From positions 82,740 through 146,739 of the forward strand of contig QPMI01000198.1 in NCBI GenBank assembly GCA_004431415.1: 64,000 nucleotides of DNA. Reading direction: 5' to 3'. The stretch comes from Cyanophora paradoxa CCMP329. Its lineage: Eukaryota > Plantae > Glaucophyta. The position numbers were made by a program, and so were the translations under genes. The notes under the pieces were generated by a model. That model saw only the letters and a program-made list of their open reading frames with translations. It had not been told where the DNA came from and made no database searches. Shown in pieces: positions 34,277 through 64,000 of the stretch (positions are counted from its first letter, which is position 1; every line of letters starts with the position of its first letter).

Positions 34277-34713
34277 CCGGCCCGACGAGTTCGAAAGTCC
34301 GCCGCGCTCTCCCGCGTCCAGACCAGCTTAGCTACCGCTGCGCTGTGTGCTTGTCTACCGTCGTGCGCTGGGTATTCCGACCTACGTACGCGCTCGATCG
34401 GGCTGGGTTGGCGGGCTGATTAGCTCGCCTTCCCTGCCAACCGTGCAAACACCGTACCAGCCGCAAGCGGTTATTTTGAGCAAGTCCAAAACCGTCGCTA
34501 TTCCTGGGTTTTTTAGTTGGGCCGAACGGGAATCTGGTGTTTTCAGAAGATTTCGGAGCACATTTCGAGACAACGCTAGGCACGCTCGCAGGCGCTAGGC
34601 AAGCTTGCAGGCGCTGTCGCTGCGCGCGCCAGCACTTTCGCTTTTGCGTTCGCGCTTTCGTACATTATGGGCGCGCACTTTCGTACTTTATGGGCGCGCA
34701 CCCGTCTCGAGCG

Positions 34714-37700
34714 CCTCGCGCCCGGCCAGCGCCCCGCGGAGCCGCCCGCCCAGCGCGGGAAGGGCACCGCACGGGCATGCTACTCCTTCTGCAGCGATTG
34801 CAGGCCCCAGCAGCTCTCGCCAGCCGAGAGAAGCGAGCGGTTCGCATGCAGCGAAAGATGCCGAGGCCATGCTCGGCGGAGGCGCGCACCCGTCTCGAGC
34901 GCCTCTTTAGCTCTAGCTAACCCCGCTGGCTGCGCAGAGCTGGCAGCGGCCAGGATCAGGGCGCTGACGGAAGTGCACAACAAGAAGGTCCGGGCGTTGA
35001 TGGGCACGATCCAGCTGTTGGAGAAGCGCATCAAGGATGCAGAGATACAGAACAAGGAGAACAAGCGGTCCAACCTCATCAAGCTACTCGAGGCAAGCGC
35101 GTGTGGGCTCACGGTGTCGTTCGCTTGAACTGATGCACCGGTCCGCACAGCAAGATTTGAAGGACCAGGAGGTCACCATTGCAATCCTGAGACGCGAGCT
35201 CGTCAACAGCGCTCGCCTGAACGATGAGAAGGTGCCCCAGCTGCGCCTGTGCGAATCTTGCGCCCCTGACCCCGCGCGCCGCAGGTGGACGAGCTCGTCG
35301 CGAGGGCGCACGGCTACGCATATGACCGCGTCAGGATTCCGCACCGCGAGCGCCTGCAGAAGGAGGTGACCGCTTGTGCAATCAGGCCCGCCGACCCGCG
35401 TTAGCTGACGTCACGCATACACACAGGTGAAGCAGCTGCAAGCGAAGGCGACGCAGGCGCAGCACGAGGCAATGGAAGCGAAGGCGCGCGTGGCGATTGT
35501 GGCAGCGGAGAAGGCGTCGGTCCCGTCGCCGGACGCGGACACGCGGATCACGTACAGGGAGCACCAGAAGACGGGCGAGCGGGCCTTGCATCGCCCTCTC
35601 TCCGCACCTCTGACGCCTTGTCGGCAGTTGCGCGGATGAAGGACCTGGCGCGGCAAGTGGAGGAGCTGCAGGCGGAGGCGGCGGCGCGGGCGGGGGCGGA
35701 GAAGAAGCTCACGGAGCTGAACACGGAGCTGACCGCCAACCTGCGGCGCCTCCGAGCGTGCGGCCGCCCCTCCCGCCCCGTGCGGCGCTCTCTGACGCGC
35801 GGTGCAGGGCGGAGGAGGAGTGGGCGAAGTGGGCGCAGGAGCGCGAGAAGCTGGAGAGCCGTGTCAACGAGCTGCGCTGGGAGAGCGCCGCCCTCTTCGC
35901 GGAGCGCACGCGGGTGCGCTGGGACGCCAACCCCCCCTTTCTCGCCTGAGACGGGATGTAGGCGGAAGAGGCGGCGCGGGCGGCGCAGCGGGAGGCGGAG
36001 GCGGCGAGACGGGAGGTCGAGACGGCGCTCGCGCGGCAGGCGGAGCTGCAGGCCGCCGCCGCGAAGCAGGCCGCAGCCGCCGCCGCGCCGCAGACGCCCG
36101 CCGCCCCGGCTCCGCAGCCGCCGGCGACGCCGTCTGGGGTGGCCGGTGCCCCCGCGCCCGCAGCAGCAGCCGAGTCGCCGGCCGCGCCCGCCCCCGGCTC
36201 CCGGCCGGCGCCGGCGTCGGGGCGGGCATCGGCCTCCTCCGCGCTGCCCGAGCTGGCGGCGGCCCGCAACGAGGCGGCCGAGCTGCAGTCCAAGGTCCGC
36301 GCGCGGGCGTTCGACACCGCCGCGCAGCCGGGGCCGACAGGCGGCGCGCAGCTGCGGGAGGCGGATTCGCAGCTGGCGGCGCGGGAGACGGCGCTGACGG
36401 CCAAGTGGCAGGAGGCCGTCGCGGCCGCACAGGAGGAGCGCAGCCGCGCCGCCGACGAGCGCGGTGCCCGCCGCGCGCTCCCAGCGAGCCCCCGCCGCTC
36501 ACGCCGCGGCCCCGCGCAGCGCGGCTGGAGGGGAACCTGGATGCGGTGGAGAAGGAGGGCGGCGGCGCTGCGGGCGCAGGTCGCCGAGCTGCGCATCGCC
36601 CTCGCGGCGGCCCAGCGGGAGCGCGACCTCGCCGCCGCCTCTGCCTCGGCCCCGGGCCAGCCGGCGACGGGCCAGTCCGGCGTGCCCGCCGAGGCCCTCG
36701 CCACGGTCCGGCGCTGCCCCTCGCGGCTCTGGACGCTCCCTGACGGCGGCCCGGCCCGGCAGCTGGAGGCGACGGTGGCGCAGCTGCGGAAGCAGCTGGG
36801 CGAGTCGGCGGCGGCGGCGGGGCGGGCGCGGGAGCGCGAGGCGCAGCTCGCGGCCGACGCTGACGCGCTCCGCCAGCAGCTCGCCGCCGCCCAGCAGCAG
36901 CTCCGGTGCCCCGCCGCCCCGCCCCCCCCCTCCCCGCCGCTCCTGACGCCGGCCTGCAGCGCCGCGGCGCCCGAAGCGGCCCCGGCAGTCACGCGGAGCA
37001 TCGCCGAGGCGCGTAGCGTTGCTTCCAGGCGTCTGCCCCGGGGCTAATCTCTCGCTCGTCCCGCAGGTCGACGCGCTGCGGCAGCGGGAGAGGGAGCAGG
37101 CGGCGGCGGAGCAGGAGCTGCGGAAGACGCTCGCGGCGGCGCGCGCCAAGGCGGAGGCGGCGGAGAGGGCATCGGAGGAGGCGCGGGGGCGCGAAGCGGC
37201 GCTGCAGGAGCGCGCTGCCCGCGCCGAGGACCGCGCCGCCGCCCTCGAGCGCCTCCACGGGCCCTCCTCCGCCCAGACCGACGTGCGTTCCCGCGCTCCC
37301 TCGCCGCCTCGCCAGTGTCTCTCGCTTTCTGAGCCCTTGGCGCCAGGGCTCCCAGCGGACGCGGCCGTCCGGCGCGCGGCACTACGACGAGGTGCGCGGT
37401 CGTCCCCGCCGCCGGCGCCGCGCCCTTCGCGCTGACCGGCGGCCCGCTGCAGGAGGAGCGCCCGGGCGGATGGCAGCAGCAGGCGGCCACGCCGGTGCAG
37501 GCCGGCGGCTCCGTGCGGCGCTGCCGCGCATACACCTCGGGCTCCTACGCGGAGGTCGGCCGGGCCGAGCCGAGCCGCCCGTACCAACCCCGCTCACGGG
37601 CCGCCCGCAGGAGGAGCCGCAGAGCGCGCGGCGCGGGCGCGGCGGCGGCTTCGCCTCCTCCGGCGCCCCCTCCCAGCAGCGCGTGCGTGCCCGCCGTTCC

Positions 37701-38007
37701 TGCCGACGCGGCCCCCTCACGCCGACCCATGGCGCCGCAGGAGCGGGCGGGGTACGAGGACGAATCAGGGCCCGGGCCCGGCCTCGTGTACCTCTCCACA
37801 GGCGCCTTCGCCGCCGGGCCGGAGTGCGCGTTCCCTTGCCGCACCCCACGCGTCTCGCCCCTCGCCCCCGGCACTAACGGCCCCCGCAGCTCGGGCCGCG
37901 CGGCGTCGCGCCGCGGGAGCGACAGTGGTGCCGGCCCCCCGGCGCGCCGGGCGCACCCTGCGGGGGAGGGGCTGCGGGCCTCGGACAGCCTGCCGGCACC
38001 GGACAGC
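34714..38007 (+). repeat. Right arm of the inverted segmental duplication (partner 8494-12009)
   Basis: Matches the reverse complement of 8494-12009, with an internal deletion of about 215 bp near 37940. Confidence 0.95.
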
Positions 38008-43264: not shown

Positions 43265-44097
43265 ATCTTCAGATTCGCCGCGGCGCCGAGGTTAAATTCC
43301 CTTCCCCGGACCCAACTGACGCGCACGGCAAGTCAGTGGCCCTTTATTTCAAATCTTCATGATCAGAACCTTAGACTCAGTGTGACTCGGATCCGGAAGG
43401 CCTTGAAGCCTTGATCATGACCTAGGCCTTCATGATCATGATCATGATGCCAAGACTCGAGGATGATGCCACGGTCAGGGCTGGGCCATGATGATCATGC
43501 CATGGCCATGATGAACTTTCGGAAGGCCGGCCGGCGGGCCGCCGGGCTTCCGAAGTTCAAGGCTTCAGGCTTGGAACTCATCCCGGAGTCCGGGCCCTGC
43601 CACTGGGCCAGGCTGCTGATCATGATGTGCTGGCCATGGATCGCCGAGTCGTGATCCAATGTTCCGACCGTCGGACTCGGGCGACGATCGCGATCGCGAC
43701 TCGGCGAGTAGACCGATATCATCGCCGAGTCGGATCACTGTCAGGCCCTGACTCAGTGAGGCCCACCCGGTCACGGGTGACGGGAGGCAATTGCAACCTA
43801 CCAGGCCAGGCTCGGCCCTGGCCCAGTGGCAGGTTGAACCCCATCATGGCATGGTGCCACGGCGAACGTCGGACCTAGCCTCGGCTTAGCCTAGGCCTCA
43901 GGGCCTCGTCTAGGGCCCTAGGCCGGTCAGGACAAGCAGGGGGGCTCCGCCCCCCCGCACCCCCCCAGTGTTTTTTTGGGTTCTTTGATTTCTTGTGGTT
44001 TTTATTCTTCTTCTTATTATTATTAAAAGGGCCACTGACTTGCCGCGCGCGTCAGTTGGGTCCGGGGAAGGGCATTTAACCTCGGCGAATCCAAGAT
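43265..44097. mobile_element. MITE-like non-autonomous element bounded by 62-bp (to ~80-bp) inverted repeats
   Basis: 43284-43345 (CGCCGAGGTTAAATTCCCTTCCCCGGACCCAACTGACGCGCACGGCAAGTCAGTGGCCCTTT) is the reverse complement of 44026-44087 with 2 mismatches. The interior is non-coding and palindrome-rich. No clear TSD. Confidence 0.65.
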
Positions 44098-46713: not shown

Positions 46714-47681
46714 TCACTCGTCCGTCCCGCGGATCTTTTTGCGGAGCTGCATGTCCTTGGGCTGGATTGTGATGCTGCGCGCCCCCGGCGGTTATGTGCC
46801 CCTGTACGGGGCGCTACAGAGTTTTGGAGGGGGTGGAATATTAATGGGCGGCATATATACCGCTTGGCATGGATCGCGAGGAGGTTGCTCCCCTCGAACG
46901 TCTCGATGGCGTAACTGCGTCTCGACGATCAGTTGCAGAGGCGGCGTTCTATGAACTTGCAAATTTCGCGAACTGCTCAGTGGCCTCGCGGAGAGCGAGG
47001 ACGGCCTGCCGGCACCAGCGAAGAGCGGTGGTGTCGGTCAGCCTCGCCTCGCGAAGCTCCTTCAGGACATCCTCGGTGATCTCCTTGACGGTGCGGGTGA
47101 ATGGGGCGAGCGCAATGATGGGTTCGGTTCGCTTCTGCCACTTGCGAATCTCCCTGCGAGCGGTGGATTCACTGAGCCTCTGATAGTGTTTATTGCACTT
47201 GAGACAACATCAACGTACCGGAGGGCAACCGTGCCTCCGCAAAGGCGTGCGCGGTTATAAACAAATTTAAATCAGATAGAGAAACATTATGAATGATAGT
47301 CACTTCAAAAGGCTTTAAGATAGTAAGATCTAGAAAAAACGTTAATTTAGAAAAAACGTTAATTAAAATATAAGATCTAGAAATGATAGTTGAATTCCGA
47401 CTCGGCGAAGTTCGAAATCACTGACTAGAGTCACTTTAGTCACTTTAAAGTTAACCCTGCTATAGCGCTAGCTAGGCCTAGGTTCGCATACTGATCATGA
47501 ATAAATATAAAAGTGAACTCGGACCTGGACGGTAACGGTGTGGCTTCTTGACGCCTCCTGCTGCAGGAGCCGCTCGACGGGCCGCCTTTGATGCGAGCTT
47601 CCGCTCGCCCATGTTTGCGAATCGCTTCCGCGGGGCCTTGCCCCCCGTGCTCTTTTGCCCCGTGTGCTTTGTCCGTGCCAT
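46714..47681 (-). CDS. Divergent histone H3 variant, 155 aa (H3-like tail with K27R/S28A; cenH3-like histone fold)
   Basis: Exons 47681-47525, 47234-47219, 47153-46974, 46914-46861 and 46774-46714 splice in frame to [155 protein letters not shown]. All four introns are GT-AG; the intron 1 acceptor is a weak GAG. Confidence 0.9.
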
Positions 47682-47820
47682 CTGGCTATAGCTTGATCGG
47701 GCCGAAAGGCCCTGCGGCCTTGCCGGAGTGCGCACACGTGGGTGCTCTTATTTATATATTTGTATACACATGGAGTTTTTGCGTCGTGCATTTCAGATTC
47801 AGAGTCAAGAACTTCGGAAA

Positions 47821-49852
47821 TCAAGGGGCGTCGGACTCGGATTTCGAGCCGTCGGCGTCCGAGGCCCCGGGCCCGGCCGCCTTGATGCGAAAGACGTTCT
47901 TCGGCATGCGAACGAGCGGCTCGCCCTTGCTGTCGACGAGCTTCTTCACGCGCTCATCGAGCCGCTTCTCGATCTCCTCGAGCGCCGCGTCGTCGGCGCG
48001 CTGCAGGTTGGGAGAAAGGCGACAAAGTCCGCCGGGCTGACGCCGTCGCCCACCACGCGCGCGAGGCCCGGGAGGCGCTGCAGGACGCGGGCGCAGGCGG
48101 CCAGGTCCGAGTAGGCCTTGGCGCACACCGAGCGCTCCTCCAGGCGGAGGCCGCAGGCCTCGAGGATGTGGTTGTAGCGCGGCTCGACGCGGTCCCGCCG
48201 AAAGTAGCCCCAGCTGCGGGGTTCCGCCCGTTGGCCTCGACGTAGCGCTCGTACGCCCGAGGATGCCCGTCGAGGCGAGGAGGAGGCAGCGGATCCGCTC
48301 CCGCCCGCGTGCTGGGCCCGCAGGAGGAGGGCCCGCCGCGCCGCGGGGTCCCCGTCGAGCTGGATCCCGACGAGGGCGGCGTCGACGCCGCGCCGCAGCC
48401 CCCGCTCGAGCTCACGGAGGGAGAGAGTCCCCTCGCTCCTCTCCGAGACCGCCTCTTCCCCTCGCCGCCCTCGCCGCCACCGCTGCCGCCGCCGCCGCCG
48501 CCGCCGCCCTCGTGCTCCGCGTCCGCATCCGAGCCCGAGTCCGACGTCCCCTCGCCGTCCCGATCGCGATCGGCCGCCTCGAGCTGGGTCTCGAACTCGG
48601 CCCGCTTCTGCTCCTCCCACTCGTTCATCGGCCCGTCTTCGCCGGCGGGCTCGCCTCCGCCTCCACCGCCGCCGCCCGCGCCGGGGGCCTCGGTCTCCTC
48701 GCCCTCGCCCTCGCCCTCGCCCGCGCCCTCCTCGTCGTCCTCCTCGTCAAAGTCCTCGCGCTTGCACGTGTAGGCGTCGTAGAGGATGCGCTGCAGCTTC
48801 TCGCTTTCCCACGGCGGCCGCCGCTCCGACGAGGCGGGGCGGCGCTGCCGCTTGGCCGGCGGGCCCTTGGGCGCCTCGATGGCCAGCGGCGGCTCCTCGT
48901 CCTCGAGCTCGTCCTTGTCCTGGGCGGCGGCGGGGGCCATGCGCCTCGCGCGCGTCGCCCGGGCCGCGGCTGCCGGCGCCGGCGCCGGAGCTCCCTTGGC
49001 CGCCGACGCCGAGCTCCCCTCGGCCGCCGTCGAGGCCTGCGAGGCCCCGGCGCGCCCCGAGCGGCGGGGCGTCGACGCGTTCGAGTCGGTCCCGCCCTTG
49101 TGCGCGGCCGCGGGCTGGGCGGCCGCGGGGGAGCCCGCGGCAGTAGGCTCCTGGGAGGCAGACTCGGCCGCTGGCGCCGCCTGTCCCCTGGACGAAGAGG
49201 GCCCCGCCCCGCCGCTCGTCGGGGCGCGCGGCGGCACGAGGCAAGCGCGGCGAGCTGGATCGCGCGCGAGACGCCCTCGGCAGCCGTCCAGGACTCGGGG
49301 CGCTCGGCCTCGTGGACAAAGGCGCGGTAGGCGAGGTAGCCGTCGACGCGCGACGAGGGGACGAGGTGGAGAGGGTCGGGTGCGGCTCGCTGCACGCATT
49401 CTGGAGCATGGGGCACTCGACCTCGCCCTCTTCGTCTCCGGCCGCGCCCGTGGGCGCCAGAACCTGCGCAGAAGGGGACGTCGAGGGGGGCGGGGGGTAC
49501 GGTGGGGGTATGGGCGCGGGGCTGGCACCTTGGGAACGCAGGCGAGGCACACGAGGCCGTGGCGCTGGAGCAGGTGGCCCGTCGGCTCGTCGTTGAGGTC
49601 GATCGCGCGGTCGAGGTCGCCCCCGCCGGCGAGCTCGGCGATGCTCCTGGCCAGGCATGCCGGCACGTACGCCGGCGGGAGGAGCCGCTCCGCAGCGCAG
49701 ACGCTGCACCGGGGGCGCACGTCGAGCTCCAGCCAGGCCGAGATGTACTTGGGGCGGGCGATCCGCACGGGCCGCGCGTCGATCGGCGGGGCCCCCGACG
49801 CTGCCTCCTCCTGGGAGGACGCCGCCTGCTTGCCCTTGGCCTTGGCCCCCAT
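47821..49852 (-). CDS. RING-like zinc-finger protein with long acidic/Gly-rich disordered region; a few frameshifts
   Basis: ATG 49852 (MGAKAKGKQ..). CSVC..C..RHGLVCLACVPK, intron 49528-49464, VLAP..VECPM..C. NLS-like PPAKRQRR, acidic tract, and a helical C-terminus ending ..SESDAP* at 47821. Two to three single-base frameshifts are needed. Confidence 0.55.
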
Positions 49853-50164
49853 CGAGACCGCGGGACCCGTGTTCCCGGTACCCTCCCCGCTCGAGTCGAG
49901 GGGGTACGCAGGCCCTTTCAATCCTGCACGCGGGAATGAGACGGACGGCGTGCGACCGTCGGACGTGCAGCCATTTATGAATTCGGGAGATGCACGCCCC
50001 TCTCGCTTTTCCTTGGTGCGCATGCGCACCTGCGAACCGCGCGGCAGCGTCCAACAGGCCCGCGTGCGCTCGGCCTCTAGATCTGTGCCCGTTAAGGCCG
50101 GTGCGCCTCGCGACTCGTTCTAGCGGCGGCAGGCTTGTACCCCCGTTCACTTCACATGGACCCG

Positions 50165-50960
50165 AAATCGGCCGGGCTCTGGTCGGGGAGGGGGGGGGAA
50201 GGGGGGAGGGGGGGAAGCGCGGCTAGGTGCGGGTCTTGCAAGGCGTACCCGGCCCTCTCGACTTGCCGGATTTCGAGAGCGGTTTCCGAAGTGGCTCCGT
50301 ACCCCTGACCATACGGTACATAGACCTGGAATCGGCCGAGCTCTGGTCGGGGGAGCTCGAGTAGGGGGGGTAGAGGGTGAGGCCGCAAGGGTACCAGACG
50401 GACAAGGTCGCAAAAGACGCCGTTCCCCACACCCTCGGCAGAGCGACCAGAGCTCGGCCGATTTCAGGCCTAGAAAGAGGGGGCAGAACGATCTGTACCC
50501 CTCTTTCGCCGCCGACCAGAGCTCGGCCGATTTCAGGCCTAGAAAGGGGGGCAGAACGATCTGTACCCTTCTTTCGCCGCCGACCAGAGCTCGGCCGATC
50601 CCAGGTCTAGAAGAGGGGGACAGAACGATCTCGGCCTTTATCTTGAGGCTGTACCCCCCGATCGCGTGGTGCATCTAGACCGGGGATTGGCCGAGCTCTG
50701 GTCAGTGCACGTGGTGGGGGGGGAATTCAAAGGGGTTATATATAGAGGGGAAGGGTTGAAGGAAACCGGTATACCCCCCTCCCCTCCCCTCCCCTCCCCC
50801 TCCCCCCCCCAAGGCCCGCAGACTGCAGAAGATCCAACCAGAGCTCGGCCGATTTCGCGACCAAATATAAAGGGGGCAAGGTTAAGAGAGCGCGTCAAAG
50901 ACCACTACCCCTCAGAATCACCACAACTAGACCTGGAATCGGCCGAGCTCTGGTCAGCGG
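50165..50960. repeat. Left array part A: dispersed copies of the CAGAGCTCGGCCGAT core, including a 68-69-bp tandem repeat x3 (50444-50636) with an internal hairpin
   Basis: Unit CGACCAGAGCTCGGCCGATTTCAGGCCTAGAAAGAGGGGGCAGAACGATCTGTACCCCTCTTTCGCCGC starts at 50444, 50513 and 50581; stem GAAAGAGGGG/CCCCTCTTTC. Further core copies in both orientations near 50168, 50331, 50686, 50838 and 50938. Confidence 0.9.
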
Positions 50961-50982
50961 GGGGAGAGGGGATCCCGCCCCC

Positions 50983-52100
50983 TAATCGGCCGAGCTCTGC
51001 GCAGGGACTGCTGCCGCCAGGGCTGCGCGGTGCCGGACGCTTCCTGATCCGTACCCCCGCCCGCTCCCCCCCCCTCCTCTTCCTCCCCCTGCACAGAGCT
51101 CGGCCGATCGCGGCTCTATGAGCGGCGGCGGCAGAGGTGCGTACCCCTCTCTGTCTACCTCGCCCCCTAATCGGCCGAGCTCTGCGCAGGGGGCCGCTGC
51201 CGCCGAGGGTAGGGCGATACCGGACGCTTCCTGATCCGTACCCCCGTCCGCTCCGCCCCTCTCCCCCTTGCCCCCCCTGCACAGAGCTCGGCCGATCGCG
51301 GCTCTATGAGCGGCGGCGGCAGCGGTGCGTACCCCTCTGTCCGTTTTTCGCCTCTCTCTCTCGTCCCGTAATCGGCCGAGCTCTGCGCAGGGGGCCGCTG
51401 CCGCCGAGGGTAGGGCGATACCGGACGCTTCCTGATCCGTACCCCCGTCCGCTCCGCCCCTCTCCCCCTTGCCCCCCCTGCACAGAGCTCGGCCGATCGC
51501 GGCTCTATGAGCGGCGGCGGCAGCGGTGCGTACCCCTCTGTCTGTTCTCGCCCTCGCTCTCGTCCCGTAATCGGCCGAGCTCTGCGCAGGGGGCCGCTGC
51601 CGCCGAGGGTAGGGCGATGCCGGACGCTTCCTGATCCGTACCCCGCCCGCTCCGCCCCTCTCCCCCTTGCCCCCCTTGCACAGAGCTCGGCCGATCGCGG
51701 CTCTATGAGCGGCGTCGGGAGAGTGCGTACCCCTCTGCTTAGTTCTCGCGCCCTTTGTCCCGTAAATCGGCCGAGCTCTGCGCAGGGGGCCGCTGCCGCC
51801 GAGGGTAGGGCGATGCCGGACGCTTCCTGATCCGTACCCCCGCCCGCTCCGCCCTCCCCCTCTTTCTCCCCCTGCACAGAGCTCGGCCGATAGCGGCTCT
51901 ATGATCGGCGGCCGCACAGGTGCGTACCCCTCTGCCTGTTCTCGCCCTCTCTCTCGCCCCGTAATCGGCCGAGCTCTGCGCAGGGGGCCGCTGCCGCCGA
52001 GGGTAGGGCGATACCGGACGCTCACCTTGATCCGTACCCCCGTCCGCTCCGCCCCCCCCCCCTTGCCCCCCTGCACAGAGCTCGGCCGATCGCGGCTCTA
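50983..52100. repeat. Left array part B: six tandem ~185-201-bp units, each containing a 23-bp inverted repeat
   Basis: Units start at 50983, 51168, 51369, 51568, 51763 and 51962. Each has ATCGGCCGAGCTCTGCGCAGGGG ... CCCCTGCACAGAGCTCGGCCGAT around a conserved spacer. Confidence 0.95.
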
Positions 52101-52453
52101 CGAGGCGACGGCGGCAGGGTTCGAAAATCCCCCAGGCACCTCGCAACCGCATGTCGATTGTTTGAAAGAGAAAAAAAACATTCTTGATCACGAAAATGCC
52201 CTCACGCGCGCTCTGGGGCCGGCGCCGGCGCCGCGCGCGCCAAACTGCAGCGACCCCACTCGAGAGCCCCGCGTGCATTGAGCCTGTACGTCCACTAGCT
52301 CGAGCTGGCTCCCACGGTTATGCGTAAAGCCGGAAACGAGAGCACGCGCGCGTGCGCGCGTCTCGGTTCGATTCTCAGTCCCACACCGCACATGTACACG
52401 TGCACAAAAAACTCCACGCACTTTTGATGCGCTCGGCACAATATACTCTCTGC

Positions 52454-53022
52454 TCACGAGATCGCCGACAGAACATTGCCGGCGGCGGCGCGAATCTTGC
52501 CGGTGCGGAGCATCGTGAGGAAAAGGGGGACCATCCCGAGGACGACGCGCTCGTACAGGTCCAGGTGCAAAATGTCGACTCCCTGGCACGACAGCAGCTC
52601 GAACCAGAGCTCCACGGGAAAGACGACGTACGCCAGATCTAGATCGGAGGAGGTGGCCAGCGGGCCCTGGGCGGCGCGTGCGCGCGGGGCCAAGATCGCG
52701 TCGACGCGGTCCGCAAAGGCGCGCCCGAGCACGTTCTCGAGTTGGACGAGACCCTCCGAATACTTTTTGGCGCTCGCCGCGAACAGGCCCGTCACGATGG
52801 GGAGGATGCGCTCCGCGGTCGGCCGGAGCGTCTGGAGCGCGTCGTCCGTCTCGCGCGCGGGACCTTGCCGCCCTTGGCCTTGGTCGCGAGGGCGACGATG
52901 TCGCTGTCGTAGAGGTTGCGGTCCTCGTCGTCGTAGTTGTAGTGGATAAAGTCGCTGACCAGCTCTCCCATGTCGATCAGGACGCTGCGACGAGGGTGCT
53001 GGCAGGGCTGGGCGGCGGCCAT
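52454..53022 (-). CDS. Intronless orphan helical protein, ~190 aa (one frameshift near 52860)
   Basis: MAAAQPCQHPRRSVLIDMGELVSDFIHYNYDDEDRNLY.. continues after a frame change into ..TAERILPIVTGLFAASAKKYSEGLVQLENVL..VFPVELWFELL..NVLSAIS*. Confidence 0.55.
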
Positions 53023-53470
53023 ACTTGAGCTTGTTCTCGGTTCTTGACGATGTGAAAGAATGGCCGCATCGCGCACCTGCTCGTCGTTTTGGGAGACCAG
53101 AGGACCCTTTTGTTTGAATCGGGCCCCTCTACATTGCTGCGCTCAACCAACTCGGTGCGCCAGAGGGTACCCCTCGCCCCCACCCGCCGCCCCCCATGGC
53201 CAGCCCCGCTCACTTGGGGCCCCGCGGCCGTCCATCTGCCCTCGCCCGCCCCGGCCCCGCGCCCCCGGCCCACCGTGGCGCAAAGGAGCACGCAAAACAA
53301 ACTTGGATTAATCGCATGTACATGTGAACCACAGAAGACACTATATAGCTATCATAGTACTAGTATCGATATCGAACGAGAAGACTCTGAGAATCGGCGG
53401 CGCGGGAGAAAAACGCACACGAGAGTGCACGGTGCGCCGCTCAGCGCTAGCGGGTCACACGTGCAGCGTA

Positions 53471-55281
53471 CTATACGGTAGGCTGCGAGTCGCCGGGGAA
53501 GAACGTGAGCGTGTAGTTGTGCCGTTCGCCTTCGACGGTGCAGTAGCGGTCGCGCAGCCACTCGCAGGTCGGCTTAAACGTGTTGTGCTGCAGATGGGTG
53601 CTGATCGACGCCGCAAACGGGCCGCCCTGACCCGTCAGCCTCCCGATCTCCGACCACTGGATGTACCGGACGACGCTGAACGGCGCGGGGGCGTCCTGGT
53701 CCTCTCCGAACGCGAGCGCCGCCACGCCGTGCAGTCCGACGGCTCCCAGCGGGCGGATGGAGCGCGCGTCCAGCAGGCCGCTGGCCACGGGTACCTCGAA
53801 ATACTCCAGGTCGCGGGCGTAGGGCGTCACGGAGACGAGAAAGGGGCGATCGACGCCGGTTCCTTCGAACTCGAACTGGCCGGCGGCCTGGTAGATGAAG
53901 TTCCAGTCGCCGACGGGCGTGACGCAGCCGTACGACTTGCCCTCGCAGGGCATGTGCAGCTCGATCATGGTGGGGCGACCAGCGCCGCTGCCAGCGAGGT
54001 AGTACATGTACATGGACGCGCTCCGGATGCTGCCCACGTTCCGAGCCGCGTGGAGGAGCCAGTTCTCGCCCAGACCGACGGCAAAGGCCTCTGCGGGCTC
54101 GGCGCCGCAGACGATCCACCAGCCCTGGCGCGCAGCGCCGCCCGAGAGCCGCACCGATGCGATGAACTCGACAAAGGCCTCCTCGCGGGCGGCGGGTTCG
54201 TCGACGCTGGAATCGTCCTCCATCATGTCGACTTCGTCCGCACCGCCCATCTCCATACCGCTGCGCAACACCTTGACCCGCACCAGCACGGCGTTGCCGC
54301 GCGCGTTCCACGTCAGGCTCGCGTCGCACTCGTGCAGGGGCACGTCGCTCCAGTCGCCGAGGGCCGAGGGGTCCCCGGAGCCGTCCACCTCGGCGAGCTC
54401 GTGGGAGAGCCGCGCGCGCGCCGCTGTCGAGTGCAGGGGGCCGGCGTCGGCCGCGGGCGCCGCGGCGGCGCCCTCTGCAGACTCGCCAGAGCCCACGAAG
54501 CGGACGAGGACGCGGCCGCCCGCGGAGCCGCCGTCGCCGGCGACGCTGCAGATCGCGACGCGCGAGGCGTCGGGAGAGGGGCGGCACGCCACCACGCCGG
54601 CGACCGCCGCGCCGACGTCGACGGTCGAGACGCCGCCGTCGGCGGACCAGACGAGCCAGCCGCGCTCGCCGCCGAGCACGATCGTCCCGTCGCCGGCAAT
54701 GGAGACGGAACCGCGAGCAAAGTCGCGGATGGGGAACCCGGCCGGGATCTGCAGGGCGTCGCCGAACCCGCCCGGCCCGTAGCGGACGATGGCGCCTCGC
54801 GGGGCGAGGTCCTCGGCCGCCGCCGCCGCCGCCGCCGGGGGAAGAGGATGCACACCCAGCGGCCCTCGCTCCCGGGCTCTGTCGGGAGGGCAAAGGTCGC
54901 GTCGAGGCCGCCGAGGCGCGACGGGATCGGGATCTCCGCCCCGCGACCGCGCCCCGCGATGAGACGGAGGCGGGCGCCGCGCGACGCGCCGGGCCCTCCG
55001 AGCAGCAGGGCGAGCGCGTCGTCGACGGCGAGGGCGTCGAACCAGCCGCTGGAGACGTCCGAGGTGCCGATCGCAAAGGAGCGGGACTGCTGGCACACGG
55101 TGAGCATCTTGAGGCGGTCCTCGCGCCCGAGGTAGTTCAGGATCGCCTCGGACAGGTCGGCCGGGAGGGATTCCATCCGTTTGCAGAACTCGCTCTCCGC
55201 GGCGCCGTGGACAAAGGGTTTCTCGACGAGGCGGGGCGCGCCGGCAGCGGTCATCGTGGCGAGGTTTGCGTTGGTGGCCAT
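53471..55281 (-). CDS. Intronless F-box protein with C-terminal beta-propeller-like domain, ~600 aa (one frameshift near 54840)
   Basis: F-box pattern MESLPADLSEAILNYLGREDRLKMLTVCQQSR in ORF 54313-55281. Beta-strand blades (VSIAGDGTIVLG, CRPSPDASRVAIC, LTWNARGNAVLV) in ORF 53471-55096. Confidence 0.7.
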
Positions 55282-55489
55282 CGTCGCCGTAGAGTCCAGT
55301 TAATGTTCGTGACCTGCGAAAGAGGAGGAGAAGAGAGTGAGCGCAGCGGCGCGGGCGAGGCTTTTATCGACGCCGAGGCCCGATTCGAGCGAAAGAGCGG
55401 CGGGCAAAAAAAAACCAAGTCGGGAGAAAGCAAAAACGCAGCGGCGCGCTTTCAAAGGACTCGGCGAGGCCGCGCATCGAATTTCGCAT

Positions 55490-58400
55490 TCACGCAGGGG
55501 GAGCGGGGGTAGGTGCCGGGGCGGGGCGGGGGGGAAGGGCCAAGAGGGGTACGCCAAAGTGCTGAAAGGTGGAGCGGGGTACGAAGAGGAGCATCTTCGC
55601 CCCGCACGAGCGCGGCCCGCGGGCGACGCGCGGGCGCGCGAGGTCCTCGGGCAGGAGCCGCGCCGCGCCGTCCACGAAGAGGCTGATGCCCGAGGTGTCG
55701 GAGCCCGTGCGCGCCACGTCGATTCCGGACGAGGGAGCGTGCGGCGCTCCTGGGGAGGTCCCGCGCAAAGATCGACGTGTACGCAAACCCGACGCAGGGT
55801 CCGGCCCCTCCCGCCCCTCCACGATGGGGCACCACTCCGAGGCGCGCTGGGCGGGGCGCCGGCGGCCTCGGCGAGGCGGCAGAGGAGCCAGGTCGCGTCC
55901 TCGGTGGGGAGGGCGGGAGACTCCTCCGCGGCGGGGAAGCCGAGGCCATCCCGCGCCGCCCCGTCGTCCATCGCGAGGGCGGCGCGCGCCAGGTCCGCGC
56001 GCAGAGCGCCGCGACGTCGGGTCGGCGCCGGCGCCGAGGGCGGCGCGATCGGGGCGAGGGCCTCGGGGGCCTCGGAGGCGGCGGCGCGCGCCAGGACCTC
56101 TGCGTAGGGCGACGCGCGGGAGGCCCCGTCCCCTCCTCCTCCCCGTCGCCGGCCCCGCGCCAGCAGCGGGCGGCGTCCTCGCCGAGGACCGCGCGCGCCG
56201 CCTGCGAGAAGAAGACCGCCGAGTGCACGCCCGACTTGAGGAGCCGGAAGACGCGCTGCGCCGCGTCGCTCGGGCGGGGGCGGGCCCCCGCCTCTGCCGG
56301 CGCGCCCGGGGCGCCACCCTCGCCGCCCTCGCCGCCGCCGCCGCCCGCGCCCGCCGCCCGGAGCTTGGACTTTGGATCCTGGACGAGCGCGATCTGGAGG
56401 AGCGCACGCCGGCCGCCAGGAGCGCCCCGAGCGTCGCGTCGGGCGGGACGTCCCGCGGCCGTCCCGATCGCGCCCGTAGAGGCGCAGGCCGAGGAGGACG
56501 GTCTCGGGTCGAAGCAGTAGCGCGTGCGCTTGACGGTCCTGCGCGCGCCGCCCCGCACCACGCGCCGCGCGTCGGCCGCCGCGACGAGCACGCCGAGGCC
56601 CAGCTGCTCCGCGGCGTGGACGACGAGGTCGTGCAGGAGGCGCCGCGCGCAGTCCCCGATCGGGGAGGGGCGGCCCCCTTGTTGCGCTTCTCCGGGCGGA
56701 GGCACTCGAGCTGCAGAGCTCGGCGCACTGCCAGCGGAGGCGTCGGCGCGGTACGCGGCGATCGCGAGTAGGGATCGCGATCCGCTCCCACGCCGCGCGG
56801 CAGGCGTCCGCAAAGAGCCGCCCGAGGGGCCCGTCGGTAAAGATGCCACCCTCCTCGATCGCCTCGCCGAGCCCGCGCAGGCGCGCCGCGCCGCAGTCCT
56901 CCGGCCCCTCCCACGTCGCCCAGAAGAGGTAACGGAGGCCGCCGCGACGTCGCTCGCCGCCGCCGCCGCGCCGCCGCCGGGCGGGACGCGCGCGCCGAGC
57001 AGCTCAAAGAGCCGCAGGGCGCTCTCAAAGGGGCGGCGCCGCTCGCGGTGGTCCGGGAGGAGCGTCGCGCTCTCCTCGTCGGGGGCCGCCCCGAGGCGAG
57101 GTACGGGAGGGTGTCGAGGGCGAACCGCTTGGAGAGGCGGAAGATCTCCGCCGCGGGCTCTGCTCCGAGAGGCGGACCTCGGCGACGCCCACCTGCTCGG
57201 GCCGCAGCCCGAAGCGCGCGGCGGCCTTTTCGCGCTTCCAGGCGCGCCGCGCCGCGTCGGAGACCTCCACCGTGGACGTCCCGTACTCCATGGCCCCCGG
57301 ATCGCCTTGGCGCAGTCGTAGCCCAGCAGCCGCGGCGCGGCGACGATGGGGAGGAGCCGCTCGCGCGCCTCGACCTCGGCCGCCAGGGGACGGCAGAGTC
57401 CGAGTACCCCTCCGGCATCCAGGGAGGCCCCCCGCCGCCGGCGCCGCCGGCGCGCTCGGCCCGCGCGCGCGCCGCCCTTGGGCTTCTTCGGGGGCTGGGC
57501 AGGGGGTACACGTAGAGGCCCTCGTTGCCGAGCGAGCGGAGCTTCAGGTGAAACGCCAGCATGGGGCACGCGTGCGTCGCGTTCCGGAGCGCCGTGCGGA
57601 CGGCCCGCACGCGGAGGTAGTGCTCCTCGGTCGCCACGCGCCTCTCCGCGGGGAGCCGCTCGTTCCACGCGCGCACCGAGTCCACCAGCTCGCCGTAGAT
57701 CGCCCGCCAGTCGACGGGGGCGTGCAGGGGCCGCCCCTGCCGGTCGGGGAGGGGGCCTTGCGGGGAACCGGCAGAAGAAAAAGGCGTCGGGCCCGATCAC
57801 GTGACGGCGGCGGCGGACGAGCTGAAAGCCGGCGTTGACGTCGGCGGTCCGCCCCTCCTCGATGTAGGCGACAAAGTTGGCGGCGGCCCGCTGGAAAAGT
57901 CGGTGCCCTGGGCATCGCGTAGTTGGAAGCGTAGCAGAGGGCGGAGCAGACGTAGTCCGAGTCCGTCATCGTCTGCCTCGCGCGCCGGTCCGCGTCGGCG
58001 TACAGGAACTCGCAGCGGCGCCCGGAGAGCCGCATGTGGCGCCGCACGATGGACTCGATCTCCCAGAGGGCGCGCCGCGTCGAGCAGGCGATGTAGCCGA
58101 CCTCGCCGGCGAGGAGCTTGGCGGCGATCACGGCGGCGGCGTAGCGAATGTCGATGGCCGTCCAGCGCAGGCGCGCGTCGTTGCTGCCGCGCTTGAGGTA
58201 CGAGATGACGTCGCCCCCGGGCGGCGCGCGGCGTAGAGGGCGGCGTCCTCGTCCAGCAGGTCGGCGTCGGCGACGATCACGAGCGCCGGCGCCTCCAGCG
58301 CCCTGTCGAACCAGGCGACCGTCTGCGCGTGGTGCTCGGGCCCCTTGAACGGCCCGCCCGTCGTGAGGGTCGTGAGGGCCCGCGCCCCTCGTCGACGATG

Positions 58401-61400
58401 ACGACGTCAAAGTCGCCCTCGAGCCGGCGGCCGCTCTGCACCGTGCACATGACGAACGAGGCGTCGGCGAGCTCCTCGGGGCGGGCCTCCTTGTAGACGG
58501 TCCAGGCGACCGGCACGCGCTCGCCCGACGCCGAGGGGTAGGAGAGGGCCGCGAAGCGGGGGTCCTTGACGAGGATGTCGGGCTGAACTCGCCCCGCCGT
58601 CACGTAGAGGACGCGGGGCGGCGCGCCGGGGACGCTGGGGAGCCCACGAGCGTCGGGTCGTCCAGCACCGCCTGCAGGATCCCCGGGGGCCCGGCCCCGC
58701 CGCGCCCTCGCGGCCCCCCACGCACGTCTCCGTCTTGCCGCTCCGGTCTCTGCCCGCACAAAGATCGTCTTCCTCCGCCGTCGAGGCGCGCGAGGATGGG
58801 GGCCGGCTGCAGAAGCGCTGGGCCCCGGGCCCGCCGGCTCGTCGATGTCGATCCAGCGTCGGGCGACGGGATCAAAGTCCGCCGGGATCGCGAGGGGCCG
58901 GGAGAGCTCGGGAGGCGGAGGGCAGCGCGCCACGTCGCGAGGTCCGGCAGCATGGCGCGCAGCCGCGCCGCCGGCCCGCCGGTCGCGCCGTCCTCGAGGG
59001 GAAAGGAGCCGGGGCCCGACGCCGCGGGCCGGACGCGCCGCTCGGGCCGCCGTCGGAGGGAGCGCCGCGCGGCGCCGAGCGTGCGCAGCCACGCGACGAC
59101 GGCATCGAGGTAGTCGACGGCGCCCTGAGGGAGCTCCGCCCAGTACGGGTTGCGGGCCGTCGCGCCAAAGGTGCCGGCGCCCATGGACTTGGCCTGCTCG
59201 GGGAAGAGCCGGAGGGAGAACATGTCCACCTCGTCCTCGCGAGGCGGAGCTCGGTCGCGTCGTCCTCGCCGAGCTCCAGCGGCCCGCAGGCCAGCGCCCG
59301 CCGCACGCCGCCGCGCCGCACGCCCGGACGCGCACCTGACCGCGCTCCTCGCCTCCCCGCTCGTCTGGTCGATGAAGAGCTTCCCTTGCGGTGACCGCAG
59401 CTCCAGCAGGGACGCGGACAAAGTAGGAGCGGCCTCGACGTGCGAGGCGACGCGGACGGGGGGCAGCGCCCCGCCGGCCGCTGCGGGAGGGCGGGGGCGG
59501 CCGGCGCCGGCGCCGCCCGCGCGCACCGTCCTGGGGCCCGTCCCCCTGCCCCCTCCCCCTCTGCCGCCGCCGCTGCCGCCTGCGCCTCTGCCGCCGCCGC
59601 CGCCGCCGCCGCGCGCGCGAGCCTCTCCGCGAGCTGGAGGCTCCGGTCGGCGATGCGGGCGACGGTGGCGTGGAGCCCCAGGAGCGCCGCGTCGGCCTGG
59701 GCGAGGGTCGAGGCGCCGCCAAAGGCGCCCGGCTGGGCCCACGCGAGGGCGCCCAGGAGCGGCTCGCCGGCGCAGCGGAGCGAGTAGCAGTGCGCCGTCG
59801 CGGCGAGGACGCCGGGGATGCGCTCTCCGCCACCCACATGCTCGTCTCCACGCGCTCGTGGTCCGGCCGTGGGGGCAGAGCTCGCCCCCGTCCGCGTCGG
59901 GCGGCGAAACAAAGTGGGAGATCGAGGGGCCGCCGCGGCCGCGCGGCCGCGGCGGGGGCGGCGCTCCAGCCCCGCCCGCGCCCGCCCCGCACGCGAGGAG
60001 CCCGAGCGCTCCACCACGCCCTCGCTGATCGTCGCCTCGTCCTCGGCGTCCCGTCCTCCGCATTCCCGCCCTCCTCCTCCTCCTCCTCTTCTCGCCCTCC
60101 GATCGAGCGTCGGCGGCGCCGGGGGCCCGGGGGGCGCGCGGGGCTTGGGCGGCGGAGGCGGGCGCCGTCCGCGGGGCCGCCACGTGGAGGGTGTGCTTGG
60201 GGCGATCTCGCGCGCGAGCTCGCGCAGCCAGCGCCACTCGTCGCTGTTCCACGCGACGAGGAGCGGGTCGGGCCGCGTGGCGTGCAGGCGGACGTCGCCG
60301 CGATCGCCGCGTCGTCGACGGCCTCCAGGGGTACCGCCACGGGGTAGTAGGAGGTCCAGCGTGGCGGTGCTCGTCGGAGCGGCAGCGCTGTTGACGCGGA
60401 ACGGCGCGAGGTCCAGGACGCCCTCCTTTCCAGCTGCTCCACCATCGCCCGATCCCGCGCTCCTCCGCAAACGGGACGACGACGCGCTCAAAGCCTCGCG
60501 CCCCTCCACCGTCCCGCCTTGTACATGCCGGGGACGCGCCGCGGCCAGCGGCGCGCGTGGCCTTGGACCAGAAGGAGCGGCGGAGGCGGCTCTTCTCCCC
60601 TGCGGGACCGACGGTCGCGCAGCGCCGCCGCCGAGTCCTCCTCGAGCCGCTTGAGCTTGGCGCGCACGATGCCCACCACTGGTCGAGGTCCTCCTTGGCG
60701 TACACGGCGGCGCCGGGCCCCTCGACCGCCGCGACGAGGTCGGCGTCGCGCACGTAGACGTGGAAGCCCTTAAGGCCGAGAAGACGACGAGGACGGCGAC
60801 GCCGCGCGCCTGGAGGGCCGGGCAAAGTCGCGCGCGCGGCGGGCGACGCCGAGGATCTCGGGACCTCGGTCCAGTAACTGGGCGAGGGTCTCGCACCGCG
60901 CCAGCACGCCGGCGAGGTACTCTTTCTTGGCGTTCTTCAGCTGCTCCCTCCGAGCGAGCCGCCCTCCAGCGCCTCGGGGAAGCGGATGTTGGGGACGTCA
61001 AAGTCAAAGACGTTGAACGCGCGGAGGGTGCGCCGGCGCCGCCCGCGTGCTCGACGAGGATCTGGGGCGAGATCTGGACGACGGCGCGGCGCGCGACCGG
61101 CGACTCGAGCCTCTCCACGTCGGCGGGCTGCAGGGGACGGCAAAGATCGCGTCGCGCGCGGCGCCCTTGCGCGGGTTGCTCTTGACGAGGACCGTGGTCC
61201 GCACGATCTGGTTCGCGGCGGGGGCGGGAGGGGCGCGCCGAGGGCGGCGCGGTCGCGCCCGCCGGCGCCTTGTCCTCCATCTCGAGGTCGCCCTCTGCAT
61301 CGGCGCCGGCGCCTCCTTGGGCGGCAGCGGCACCGCCGGCGGTGCCGCCCCTCGCGCTTGGCCTGCGCCGCGGCGGCGCACGGCGGCACCGCCTGCGGTG

Positions 61401-61522
61401 CCGCCCCCTCGCGCTTGATCGTGACTTGTGCGCTGCGTTGCACGGTGGCACGCCGGCGGTGCTACTCCGGTTCGGTCGCCGGTGGGACCCTCGGACGCAT
61501 CGTGGTCCGCCGGGCGTTTCAT
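55490..61522 (-). CDS. AEP primase-polymerase + UL52-type Zn finger + herpes UL9/OBP-like SF2 helicase fusion, ~2000 aa, intronless, many single-base frameshifts (pseudogene or assembly error)
   Basis: AEP motif I AFNVFDFDV (~60995-61020), motif II VVFS/GLKGFHVYV (~60750-60790) and possible motif III GVLDLAPF (~60400-60430). Zn finger LCPHGR/DH...HCYSLRC (~59770-59880). Walker A TIFVRAETG/SGKTE (~58725-58770), RVLYVT, VMCTVQS, Walker B FDVVIVDE (~58388-58412), UL9-like LVIVADADL, YIACST. Confidence 0.8.
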
Positions 61523-62149
61523 CGTGCAGTCGAGACTGACGCCCCGACCGATGGCGCCTTCTTTTATGGTTGGAGCGCCGCCGGCCGCGAGTCGCTCGAT
61601 TCGGTCCGTTGGGCCGAATCGGCGAGAGGGGAGGGGATGGAGGGGGGTGGGGTGGGGGGGGGGGAAGGGGCAAGAGCGAGGCGGGGCAAGGGAGATTTCA
61701 ATCTCTTGCATTCGCACACAACACATGTACAACTACAATGAGTTTCACATCGCCAACATCTCTCCGACTAGATACTACTGAGGATCGTCGCATGCTGTGT
61801 TTTAGAAACGATGCAAAATGAACGAAAGGTTCGAGGGTTTTCGTATCTAGCTAGCTTGCCGCCCCAGTAGGTTGGGCTACTGGCTCTCCCTCCCGTCGCC
61901 GCCGCCGTCGCTCCCGTGATGGTGTCGTGTCCTCCAATCCCGTCCTCTGGGGATGGCGTGAGGGAAGGGGCAGAGCGTAGAGGGAAGGAGGAGAGAAGGG
62001 AGGGATTGGGGGTAGCGGGCAAGGTGAGGGAGGGGGTACGGGGGAGGGGGAGGTCAAACGGCTAAATACCCCCGGGAATTCTCTAGGAGTAGAGGGGTGC
62101 CCCCACACCGGCCCGGCTCCCCCCGTACCCCCGCCAGCACCCTCTGGCA

Positions 62150-62775
62150 ATGGCCTCTGCCGCTGCGCCCGCGCCGAGCGCACCTACGACCTCGGACGGT
62201 GGAAGTATCTGGACGGCACGCCTACGACGACCGCCCGGGGCGTGATCGCCGCGCCGCTCGCCAGCTCGGCGTCAAGTCCAGCCGCATCGGTGAGCGAGAT
62301 CGTCGGGCGCCCGGCCGGGGGCGACCCGCACCGCGACCCTCTGCCCCGCCCGCGCCGGCGCCTGGGCGCCTACGAGGCGGTCGGCCGCGCCGCCCACGTC
62401 GCCTGGACGTGCACGAGCAACCTGTGGCGCCCCGCCGCGCGCGCGCGCTCGACGACCGACGCGCCGGTGCGCGCGTCTGCTCCAGCTCCCGTGCCGCCGA
62501 CGCGCCTCGGGTGCGGGCACGTCTTCTGCCTCGGCTGCCTCCTCCCGATCGCGCCGCTCGGTGCCCCCTCTGCCGCGCCGACCCGGGCTCGAGATCGTGC
62601 CGATCCGCCGGCGGCGCACCGGCGCCTCTACGAGGCGGTCGCGAGGCCTACGCGGCGCGGCTCGCCGAGGCCGCCGCGGGGCTGGACCCGGCCCTCCCGC
62701 GGGCCCTCTGCGCGCGCTTCGTCGATCCCGCTGGCTCTCCCCGCCCGATCGAGACGGCGCCGCGCGAGCGCGTGA
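62150..62775 (+). CDS. RING-HC (C3HC4) finger protein, intronless, frameshifted; 3' end uncertain
   Basis: C..C, then PTRLGCGHVFCLGCL and ARCPLCRA (62470-62580). ATG 62150; divergent from the primase-helicase gene. Confidence 0.65.
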
Positions 62776-62965
62776 GCCGGCGCGCGCCGCGCCTCGCGCC
62801 TTGCCCTTGTATGTGTGTGTATATATACGTACCCTGTGGCCTGCGCAGGGCGTTATATAACATATATATATCTCGTACCGAATTTGAATTGTATTTGAAT
62901 TATATTAGAGGGGGGACGCGTACCCGGGATCGGTGCGGTTTTTTTTTCCTTGCGCGCTCGTCGCT

Positions 62966-63830
62966 GTGCCCTTGAGGTTGCGGTAGCCCCCTTTCTCCAC
63001 ATAGAAGCGGGAAATGGCCGAGCTCTGCGCGGGGGGGGAGTGTGAAAAAGGGGGTACGGTAGCCGACGAACAAGGTGCGGGGGGGGAGGGGGTGGAAGAG
63101 GAGGGGAGAGGGGGCAAGACGAACAAAGGGGCGGACCGAGACGCCTTGCCGCCGCTCTACCCCCTAGACTCCTCCCCCCTGCACAGAGCTCGTCCGATTA
63201 CCGGCAATGCGGGGAGCGGGACGGGGAGGGTGTGAAAAGGGGGTACGGTAGCCGACGAGAGGGTGCGGGGGGGTGAAGAGGGGGGGAGAGAGGGGGCAAG
63301 ACGAACAACAGGGCGGGACCGAGACGCCCTTGCCGCCGCTCTACCCCTTGACCTCCTCCCCCTGCACAGAGCTCGTCCGATTACCGGGCAATGCGGGAGC
63401 GGACGGGGGAGTGTGAAAAGGGGTACGTGAAAGAGGGGGGAGATGGGGGCAGACGAACAAAAGGGCGGACCGAGACGCCTTGCCCGCCGCTCTACCCCCC
63501 TGGACCTCCTCCCCCCTGCACAGAGCTCGTCCGATTACCGGGCAATGCGGGCGGGACGGGGGCGCGTACCGGCCGACGCCGTGCACGGAGGTACTGCTTC
63601 CGGATCGACTCGCTCACCTACCTCTCGCCGTGCCCTTGAGGTCGCGGTACCCCCCTTCTCCACATAGAAGCGGGAAATGGCCGAGCTCTGTGCGGGGGGA
63701 GAGTGTGAAAATGGGGTACGGTAGCCAACGAGAGGGTGCGGGGGGGGTGAAAGAGGGGGGTGAGGGGGGCAAGACGAACAAAGGGGCGGGACCGAGACGC
63801 CTTGCCCGCCGCTCTACCCCCCCTAGACCT
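62966..63830. repeat. Right array: ~155-185-bp tandem units within a ~664-bp higher-order repeat, sharing the left-array core
   Basis: CCCCTGCACAGAGCTCGTCCGATTACCG at about 63177, 63360 and 63514. GTGCCCTTGAGGT..CACATAGAAGCGGGAAATGGCCGAGCTCTG at 62966 and 63630. GACGAACAAAGGGGCGGACCGAGACGCCTTG occurs x4. Confidence 0.9.
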
Positions 63831-64000
63831 CCTCCGCGGGCGGGGGCGCGTACCCCCGCAGCACCCGGGGCAGCCGCGCCACCCCCCCGTGCACGCCTGC
63901 GCAGCCGAGGGGGGTAGGCCCGCGCCGACGAGGCGCCGAACAGATGAAGGCGTCTCCGGCTCTGCAAAATTAGTTGAATCGGTACGGCGCGGCGGGTGGA

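Follow-up and report, generated by a model that had tools for sequence, protein, structure and literature searches.

Does a heavily interrupted gene of the glaucophyte Cyanophora paradoxa encode a primase-helicase of the kind described from large DNA viruses, and what would such a protein do in an algal genome? The gene lies in a stretch of 64,000 nucleotides from strain CCMP329, which was analysed as a whole and is referred to here as the window. A preliminary description had read it as a fusion of an AEP primase, a UL52 zinc finger and a UL9-like SF2 helicase, hidden by frameshifts and foreign to the normal set of eukaryotic nuclear genes. AEP-UL9 primase-helicases are known from descriptions of large DNA viruses, in which most of their role is a matter of prediction.

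Here, we report that the gene very likely forms one frame that encodes a predicted AEP primase, a zinc finger and a UL9-like helicase. With a confidence somewhat above even, we regard its product as likely to initiate the replication of a multi-copy, virus-derived DNA element in Cyanophora paradoxa.

A reading frame very likely broken by assembly errors

The primase-helicase gene (55490..61522, minus strand) starts at an ATG at 61522, stops at a TGA at 55492-55490 and is estimated at ~2,040 codons, interrupted in the window by ~67 frame breaks; this reconstruction is based on a codon path, on short-read contigs and on P0003, a near-identical gene model from another contig. All six motifs to which the preliminary description had pointed, from VFDFD to IVADADL, lie in the expected order on the minus strand. 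VFDFD (61011), VIVDE (58402) and IVADADL (58277) are read in single frames, as is the partial motif LKGFH (60774), while three cross a break, namely SGLKGFH, ETGSGKT (ETG at ~58750, SGKT at 58742) and C-x5-H...C-x4-C. That no single open reading frame would reveal the fusion was borne out as well: single-frame searches of the gene region gave no match in Pfam or the PDB, and the stop-free path through a self-trained codon model takes 2,030 steps and 48 breaks.

Exact 7-mers shared between the window and P0003 span 5,359 of the 6,033 bases of the gene and fall into 68 frame runs. A step of one missing base accounts for 56 of the 67 frame changes in this comparison, and for 52 of the 53 that are tightly located. 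Twenty DNA runs of one organism contain 58-59% of the sampled words, and their contigs tile most of the gene, none of them spanning it whole. In one of the runs (X1), seven short-read contigs over 5,325 bases differ from the window by six substitutions and 79 net missing letters. Among the best-supported indels, up to 12 for each comparison, 11 fall inside the gene, and 10 of these 11 are located at most 5 bases from a frame change, as 22% of positions would be by chance (binomial 2e-6). Over 13 overlapping, non-independent tiles, the net number of missing letters matches the required frame shift in 10; the three misfit tiles have their ends close to 59518 or 59863, positions at which the P0003 model itself seems unreliable.

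The frame breaks are very likely assembly errors and not decay, because the short-read contigs differ from the window almost only by missing single bases and because P0003 reads the motifs in one frame. Decay of a pseudogene was rejected, since the same contigs restore the missing letters with almost no substitutions. The primase-helicase gene is very likely one intact reading frame, inferred rather than read directly, because the indels compared are the best-supported ones and no contig covers the whole gene.

The helicase core resembles herpesvirus UL9

The SF2 helicase core (57800..58830, minus strand) carries GxGK (~58745), DE (58402), DAD (58277), ACST (~58090), QGxDF (~57905) and QxxRxR (57824). 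SF2 motifs I-VI are present, with DA in motif III and Q-x3-R-x-R, and G-x-G-K, DAD, QG and Q-x3-R-x-R are invariant in five paralogues. When a profile of these five paralogues was run against 177,635 PDB sequences, the best match was HSV-1 UL9 (E 2.5e-4), with an alignment that runs from Walker A through to motif VI. In the Atlas, the top cluster for the helicase part of the paralogue P0002 scores 0.98 (224 of 256 features), and 53% of its members carry Herpes_ori_bp.

Both structure models used in this study are of paralogues (P0004 for the AEP domain, P0002 for the helicase) and not of the window's copy. The P0002 helicase model (pLDDT 54) has a Marseillevirus origin-binding helicase as its top fold match in BFVD (E 5.8e-14), with Catovirus and Clandestinovirus proteins also among the matches. 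Its best match in VIA is UL9 (Z 15.6, rmsd 5.1, 363 aligned; next family 13.7), and in Foldseek against the PDB Mfd comes first by E-value and UL9 second with a higher TM-score. By both profile and VIA, HSV-1 UL9 is the closest solved structure, with DE, DA and Q-x3-R-x-R aligned, and the helicase is closer to UL9 than to other SF2 families. The profile support foreseen in the preliminary description was therefore found in part: the paralogue profile matched UL9 as its best PDB sequence, but the Pfam cut-offs for AEP, UL52 and Herpes_ori_bp were missed, and for Herpes_ori_bp none of P0001-P0006 gave a row even with E allowed up to 10.

Beyond the core extends a C-terminal region of ~770 aa (55490..57790, minus strand), the first part of which aligns to segments after the UL9 helicase core; the helicase model itself aligns to UL9 residues 44-505 in VIA. 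The last 150 aa of P0003 align to P0002, and not significantly to P0004 or P0005. The C-terminus of UL9 contains dimerisation and SAP DNA-binding subdomains (bioRxiv 10.1101/2025.10.31.685793, available text), and by analogy the region is a candidate for the origin-binding part of the Cyanophora protein.

A predicted AEP primase domain and zinc sites

The predicted AEP catalytic domain (60350..61200, minus strand) was delimited by its motifs, by the Atlas and by a model fold. Motif I (DxD/E) is the DFD at 61011, read as FDFD in the window and in P0003 and as FDLD in P0004. Motif II, with the nucleotide-binding His, is SGLKGFH (~60780), present in P0003 and P0004 and crossing a break in the window copy, and a motif III-like VLDLAPFRVN has its Asp at ~60413. 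The pattern D-x3-F/W-x2-N-x3-R is conserved in P0003 and P0004, in a part of the P0004 model that has low confidence, and we take its Asp to be AEP motif III by likeness to the PrimPol pattern. Atlas clusters of primase or prim-pol type score 0.89-0.92, the best (0.92) with 147 of 256 features.

The P0004 AEP model is poor (pLDDT 41). The top matches to its residues 60-320 are AEP structures (NHEJ polymerase, CAPP, PriS, a human replisome chain and LigD), all with Z under 8, from 6.3 (rmsd 3.4, 119 aligned) to 5.5, and its best Foldseek match in BFVD reaches only E 0.026. SGLKGFH gives weak Pfam matches to the PriS and LigD models, below cut-off; the bit scores against the curated cut-offs are 13.6 vs 26.8 for DNA_primase_S and 15.9 vs 27.4 for LigD_Prim-Pol. 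The evidence for the AEP domain is weaker than that for the helicase.

Downstream of the AEP domain, a C-H-C-C zinc finger of UL52/PrimPol type spans 59774..59877 (minus strand), with its ligands at C 59877, H 59860, C 59789 and C 59774. The pattern C-x5-H ... C-x4-C stands in one frame in P0004, at residue 485, and runs across one break in the window. It fits, by pattern only and with a model pLDDT < 50 at this place, the C-H-C-C definition given for human PrimPol (C419, H426, C446, C451; PMC4027207, available text), and Pfam returned no row for the UL52/PrimPol finger at E up to 10. A further pattern, CxxC...CxxC (59290..59420, minus strand), is complete in P0004 at residue 603 and has its first pair in P0003; it is likely a second zinc site, of putative function.

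A paralogue family in Cyanophora paradoxa

A helicase profile searched against 1.84 billion representative proteins gave five matches at E <= 0.001, which are P0002, P0001, P0004, P0005 and P0006, all from Cyanophora paradoxa; no orthologue outside this species was found among these representatives. Over the helicase region, identity to P0002 is 79% for P0003, 32% for P0004, 26% for P0005 and 22% for P0006. P0001 is most likely the gene model of the window's own locus, since it repeats the window's wrong-frame stretches. The five-paralogue profile, used in a word-indexed search, retrieved P0001-P0003 and nothing else. PHROGs contained no family for P0002 and P0003, repeated scans of viral contigs yielded no confirmed locus of the family, none of 588 pattern matches in metagenome contigs was confirmed, and no viral member of the F1055L/R8/SF2_hel type was retrieved by sequence. 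Searches of single paralogues against the PDB with phmmer, which gave non-significant matches only, with kinesin P-loops at the top, were discarded.

In the P0003 gene model, the motifs of both AEP and helicase are read in one frame; helicase motif II is missing from this model, yet it is present in the window and in the other paralogues. P0004, a model of 1,775 aa, carries FDLD, SGLKGFH, the motif III-like Asp, C-x5-H-x23-C-x4-C, CxxC...CxxC and a full helicase, and its alignment to P0003 covers both the AEP (36%, E 1e-46) and the helicase (27%, E 2e-28). An intact AEP and a UL9-like helicase are present in one polypeptide in both P0004 and P0003. Because P0004 carries all parts in one model and aligns to P0003 in both halves, the fusion is not a product of reading across breaks, and the possibility of two separate genes is ruled out by these two gene models. 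The preliminary view of a single fused protein is upheld, and its naming of the three parts is backed by paralogue profiles, language-model features and folds; we are highly confident that the protein is an AEP primase with a zinc finger and a UL9-like helicase.

Not all members of the family have kept the whole architecture. P0005 retains the helicase, with AEP and finger motifs absent, and P0006 consists of the helicase only; loss of the primase has also been reported for mriyavirus helicases (bioRxiv 10.1101/2024.02.29.582850, available text).

Neighbouring genes and transcripts

Downstream of the primase-helicase lies an F-box-like gene (53471..55284, minus strand; Pfam F-box E 0.005-0.01, below cut-off), whose relatives were found in Cyanophora only. 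Helicase and F-box models are numbered side by side at three loci (g4786/g4787, g17657/g17658 and g1925/g1926), adjacency at the other loci being taken from the gene-model numbers. The g1925/g1926 pair lies on another contig and has diverged, to 62% and 43% identity. One more near-identical F-box copy is g17653, five gene numbers away. Sequence variants exist among the F-box copies. A short gene without a Pfam match (52454..53022, minus strand), marked by a coding path, also lies inside the high-depth block described below. Upstream of the primase-helicase and divergent from it is a RING-finger gene (62150..62800, plus strand), recognised from Pfam zf-RING (E 1.8e-4, below cut-off) and from depth. 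A Cys-rich acidic gene with a coding path (47820..49930, minus strand), left of the left array, is possibly part of the block, as the five-gene spacing of the model numbers, its one indication, would suggest.

No RNA run was listed as containing the gene stretch, and the short exact pieces of the gene in the RNA-labelled runs X22 and X24, at depth 2-3, are too little to show expression. RNA contigs of X24 over 53301-55327 (plus strand) skip 54236-54286 and 55100-55155; both skips are GT-AG on the plus strand, so the F-box-like gene is likely crossed by a spliced antisense transcript. Another X24 contig, over 61818-62834 (minus strand), skips ~61946-62183, with a GT start on the minus strand and an acceptor one base off AG. 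This skip likely marks a spliced leader that lies upstream of where the primase-helicase starts and is antisense to the RING gene.

Flanking arrays and sequencing depth

The block is flanked by two repeat arrays. The left array (50167..52090) contains 20 copies of the 15-bp site ATCGG(A/C)CGAGCTCTG, the last 12 of them arranged as inverted pairs 94-97 bases apart in tandem units of ~200 bp. The right array (63013..63835) is built of ~180-bp units with three exact copies of the site (63184-63535) and two looser ones; it is cut by the window end and may extend past it, and no ends of the element were found. The site occurs 23 times in the window against 0.04 expected and is confined to the two arrays. 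Between paired sites the spacer sequence has a GC content of 75%, in contrast to the herpes origin, whose spacer is AT-rich. AT-rich patches lie beside the arrays, and such patches also occur in other intergenic places.

Across the block (52200-62950, 10.7 kb) depth is ~3-6 times background. The depth of long contigs over 53145-61088 is 220-560, and that of most unrelated contigs with a chance match to the stretch is ~80-110; the contig piece over the gene start reaches only 137-165, and every bin of the block sums to at least 348 in two DNA runs. Although contig depth is not a copy number, the depth of the block fits a few copies, and depth and gene-number adjacency at three loci together indicate several copies with a conserved gene set. 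A very high depth at 61730-61800 was gone at stricter likeness and was set aside. One DNA contig (depth 126-149) joins 61305 to 61588, 61626 to 62050 and 62077 to 62149, with sides of 22-34 letters, and is possibly a deleted or diverged copy without the gene start.

Relation to known primase-helicases

In ASFV pF1055L, mimivirus R8, Ostreid herpesvirus 1 AAS00940 and mriyavirus SF2_hel, one protein combines an AEP domain at the N-terminus, its motifs intact, with a UL9-related SF2 helicase at the C-terminus (available text of bioRxiv 10.1101/2024.02.29.582850 and PMC10653895), in the same order as in the Cyanophora protein. By analogy, the latter may work like primase-helicases of the F1055L/R8 type, the likeness being one of architecture. 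Identity to these proteins is only 8-15%, with no sequence-level match. Unlike the F1055L/R8 systems, the Cyanophora gene belongs to a multi-copy block of an algal assembly, in a window where neither a capsid nor an HUH gene was seen, and at ~2,000 aa its product is longer than the top giant-virus matches in BFVD (~1,000-1,200 aa). HSV-1 UL9, in contrast to the Cyanophora protein, is without a primase domain. Human PrimPol and herpesvirus UL52 have an AEP followed by a C-H-C-C finger (PMC4027207, available text), as in the C-x5-H-x23-C-x4-C of P0004, but they differ from the Cyanophora protein in motif I (DxE vs DxD) and motif II (SxH vs SGLKGFH) and have no helicase fusion. We agree with the preliminary description that this is not a normal eukaryotic nuclear gene, the fusion type being known in viruses.

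Giant endogenous viral elements have been reported in C. paradoxa (PMC12344493, available text), in the same host species and likewise with viral-type genes in the assembly. Those elements were found by best hits to viral proteins, whereas the primase-helicase family has no such match. The available text of that paper contains no mention of helicase, and the names of the paralogue contigs are absent from the one supplement searched; a term search of the main text of the C. paradoxa genome paper (PMC6704402) gave no match for virus or viral. No published description of the primase-helicase family or of the block was found in what was mainly open literature, of which the tables of the mriyavirus preprint could mention it. 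What is known, then, is the AEP-UL9 fusion type in viruses, and what was not found in print is its setting as a repeated algal block. Best-hit screens would miss the family because it has no sequence-level match outside the species and because its gene models are damaged by assembly errors; its discovery would bring to light a glaucophyte family of virus-derived elements that lies outside the reach of such screens. A small repeated block, in which the enzyme stands beside a simple iterated site, would also provide a minimal system for testing origin binding, opening and priming by fusions of this kind.

Proposed role and alternative explanations

As a replication initiator, the protein would bind the paired iterated 15-bp sites via its C-terminal region, by analogy with UL9, which binds its origin boxes (bioRxiv 10.1101/2025.10.31.685793, available text). 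The SF2 helicase core would open the DNA, the AEP with its C-H-C-C finger would lay primers, and host polymerases would complete synthesis, a step proposed because no polymerase of the element was seen. The F-box-like and RING proteins may redirect host ubiquitin ligases, and new copies would arise via re-replication and recombination, partly in tandem, which is proposed because no integrase was seen. What was observed is the set of domains and the order in which one gene model carries them, the F-box pairing by numbering, the raised depth and the flanking arrays. More tentatively, and with some doubt, we suggest that the block could represent a new class of small, capsid-less eukaryotic DNA element with iterated 15-bp origins and its own AEP-UL9 primase-initiator, without polymerase or integrase, with ubiquitin-ligase cargo and with tandem or dispersed spread, of which at least four old families would be present in one glaucophyte genome.

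The protein could have the same role if the block, in its several copies or tandem pieces, belonged to a larger endogenous virus (Nucleocytoviricota, mriyavirus-like or mirusvirus-like) whose capsid and other genes lie outside the window. This reading has a real but minor share of our confidence: an AEP-helicase fusion is a viral architecture, giant-virus proteins head the fold matches, genes of F-box and RING type are often carried by giant viruses, and the window stops inside the right array. Endogenous giant-virus regions reported from C. paradoxa (PMC12344493, available text) also speak for it. However, the 293 frames scanned in Pfam, at a sensitivity lowered by missing bases and in a window that ends in the right array, include no capsid, polymerase, packaging ATPase, integrase or HUH gene; host-type genes begin by 47.2 kb on the left of the block; no relative was found in viral contigs; and a short repeat unit is suggested by the five gene numbers that separate two F-box copies.

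A once-viral gene could instead have been domesticated as a host replication or repair enzyme and have spread with its neighbours by segmental duplication, the arrays being unrelated satellites. A 3.4-kb inverted duplication of other sequence in the window, catalytic motifs kept by paralogues at 22-32% identity and a region that is transcribed and spliced would all suit such a history, which we nevertheless consider unlikely: on another contig the helicase is still paired with the F-box-like gene at 62% and 43% identity, no orthologue beyond Cyanophora paradoxa was found among the 1.84 billion representatives, the same 15-bp site stands on both flanks and nowhere else in the window, and helicase copies are almost without substitutions in short-read contigs, which points to recent spread. 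With the same protein function, the block might also be a free episome, that is, a circular or linear nuclear plasmid at few copies per cell, joined to the chromosome or written as a tandem by the assembly. Since the window links the block to intron-bearing host-type genes, the F-box copies show sequence variants and no circular joint is listed within 52200-62950 (a range that excludes the arrays), this appears highly improbable to us, even though the raised depth, the near-identity of the copies, a possible tandem period of five genes and the lack of an integrase would fit, and a primase-initiator together with iterated sites is a plasmid-like anatomy.

Other features of the window

No tRNA was found in the window. 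Host-type genes at 14687-39287 include MORN, Myb, pyridine nucleotide-disulphide oxidoreductase (with a thioredoxin-like part), RING and Tub matches. A long, intron-rich gene at 24850-34300 (minus strand), with a GC content of 48-63%, below that of its surroundings, reads like a secreted or membrane protein and had no Pfam match. The ~3.4-kb inverted duplication consists of 8529-12009 and 34714-37984, which are 84-97% complementary in ungapped pieces and 23-29 kb apart. A divergent histone H3-like gene with a long loop 1 (46720-47200, minus strand; Pfam Histone E 1.4e-9) possibly encodes a centromeric H3. Finally, a 62-bp inverted repeat (43284-43345 and 44026-44087), 97% complementary and with its arms 680 bases apart, is possibly a small non-autonomous transposon.
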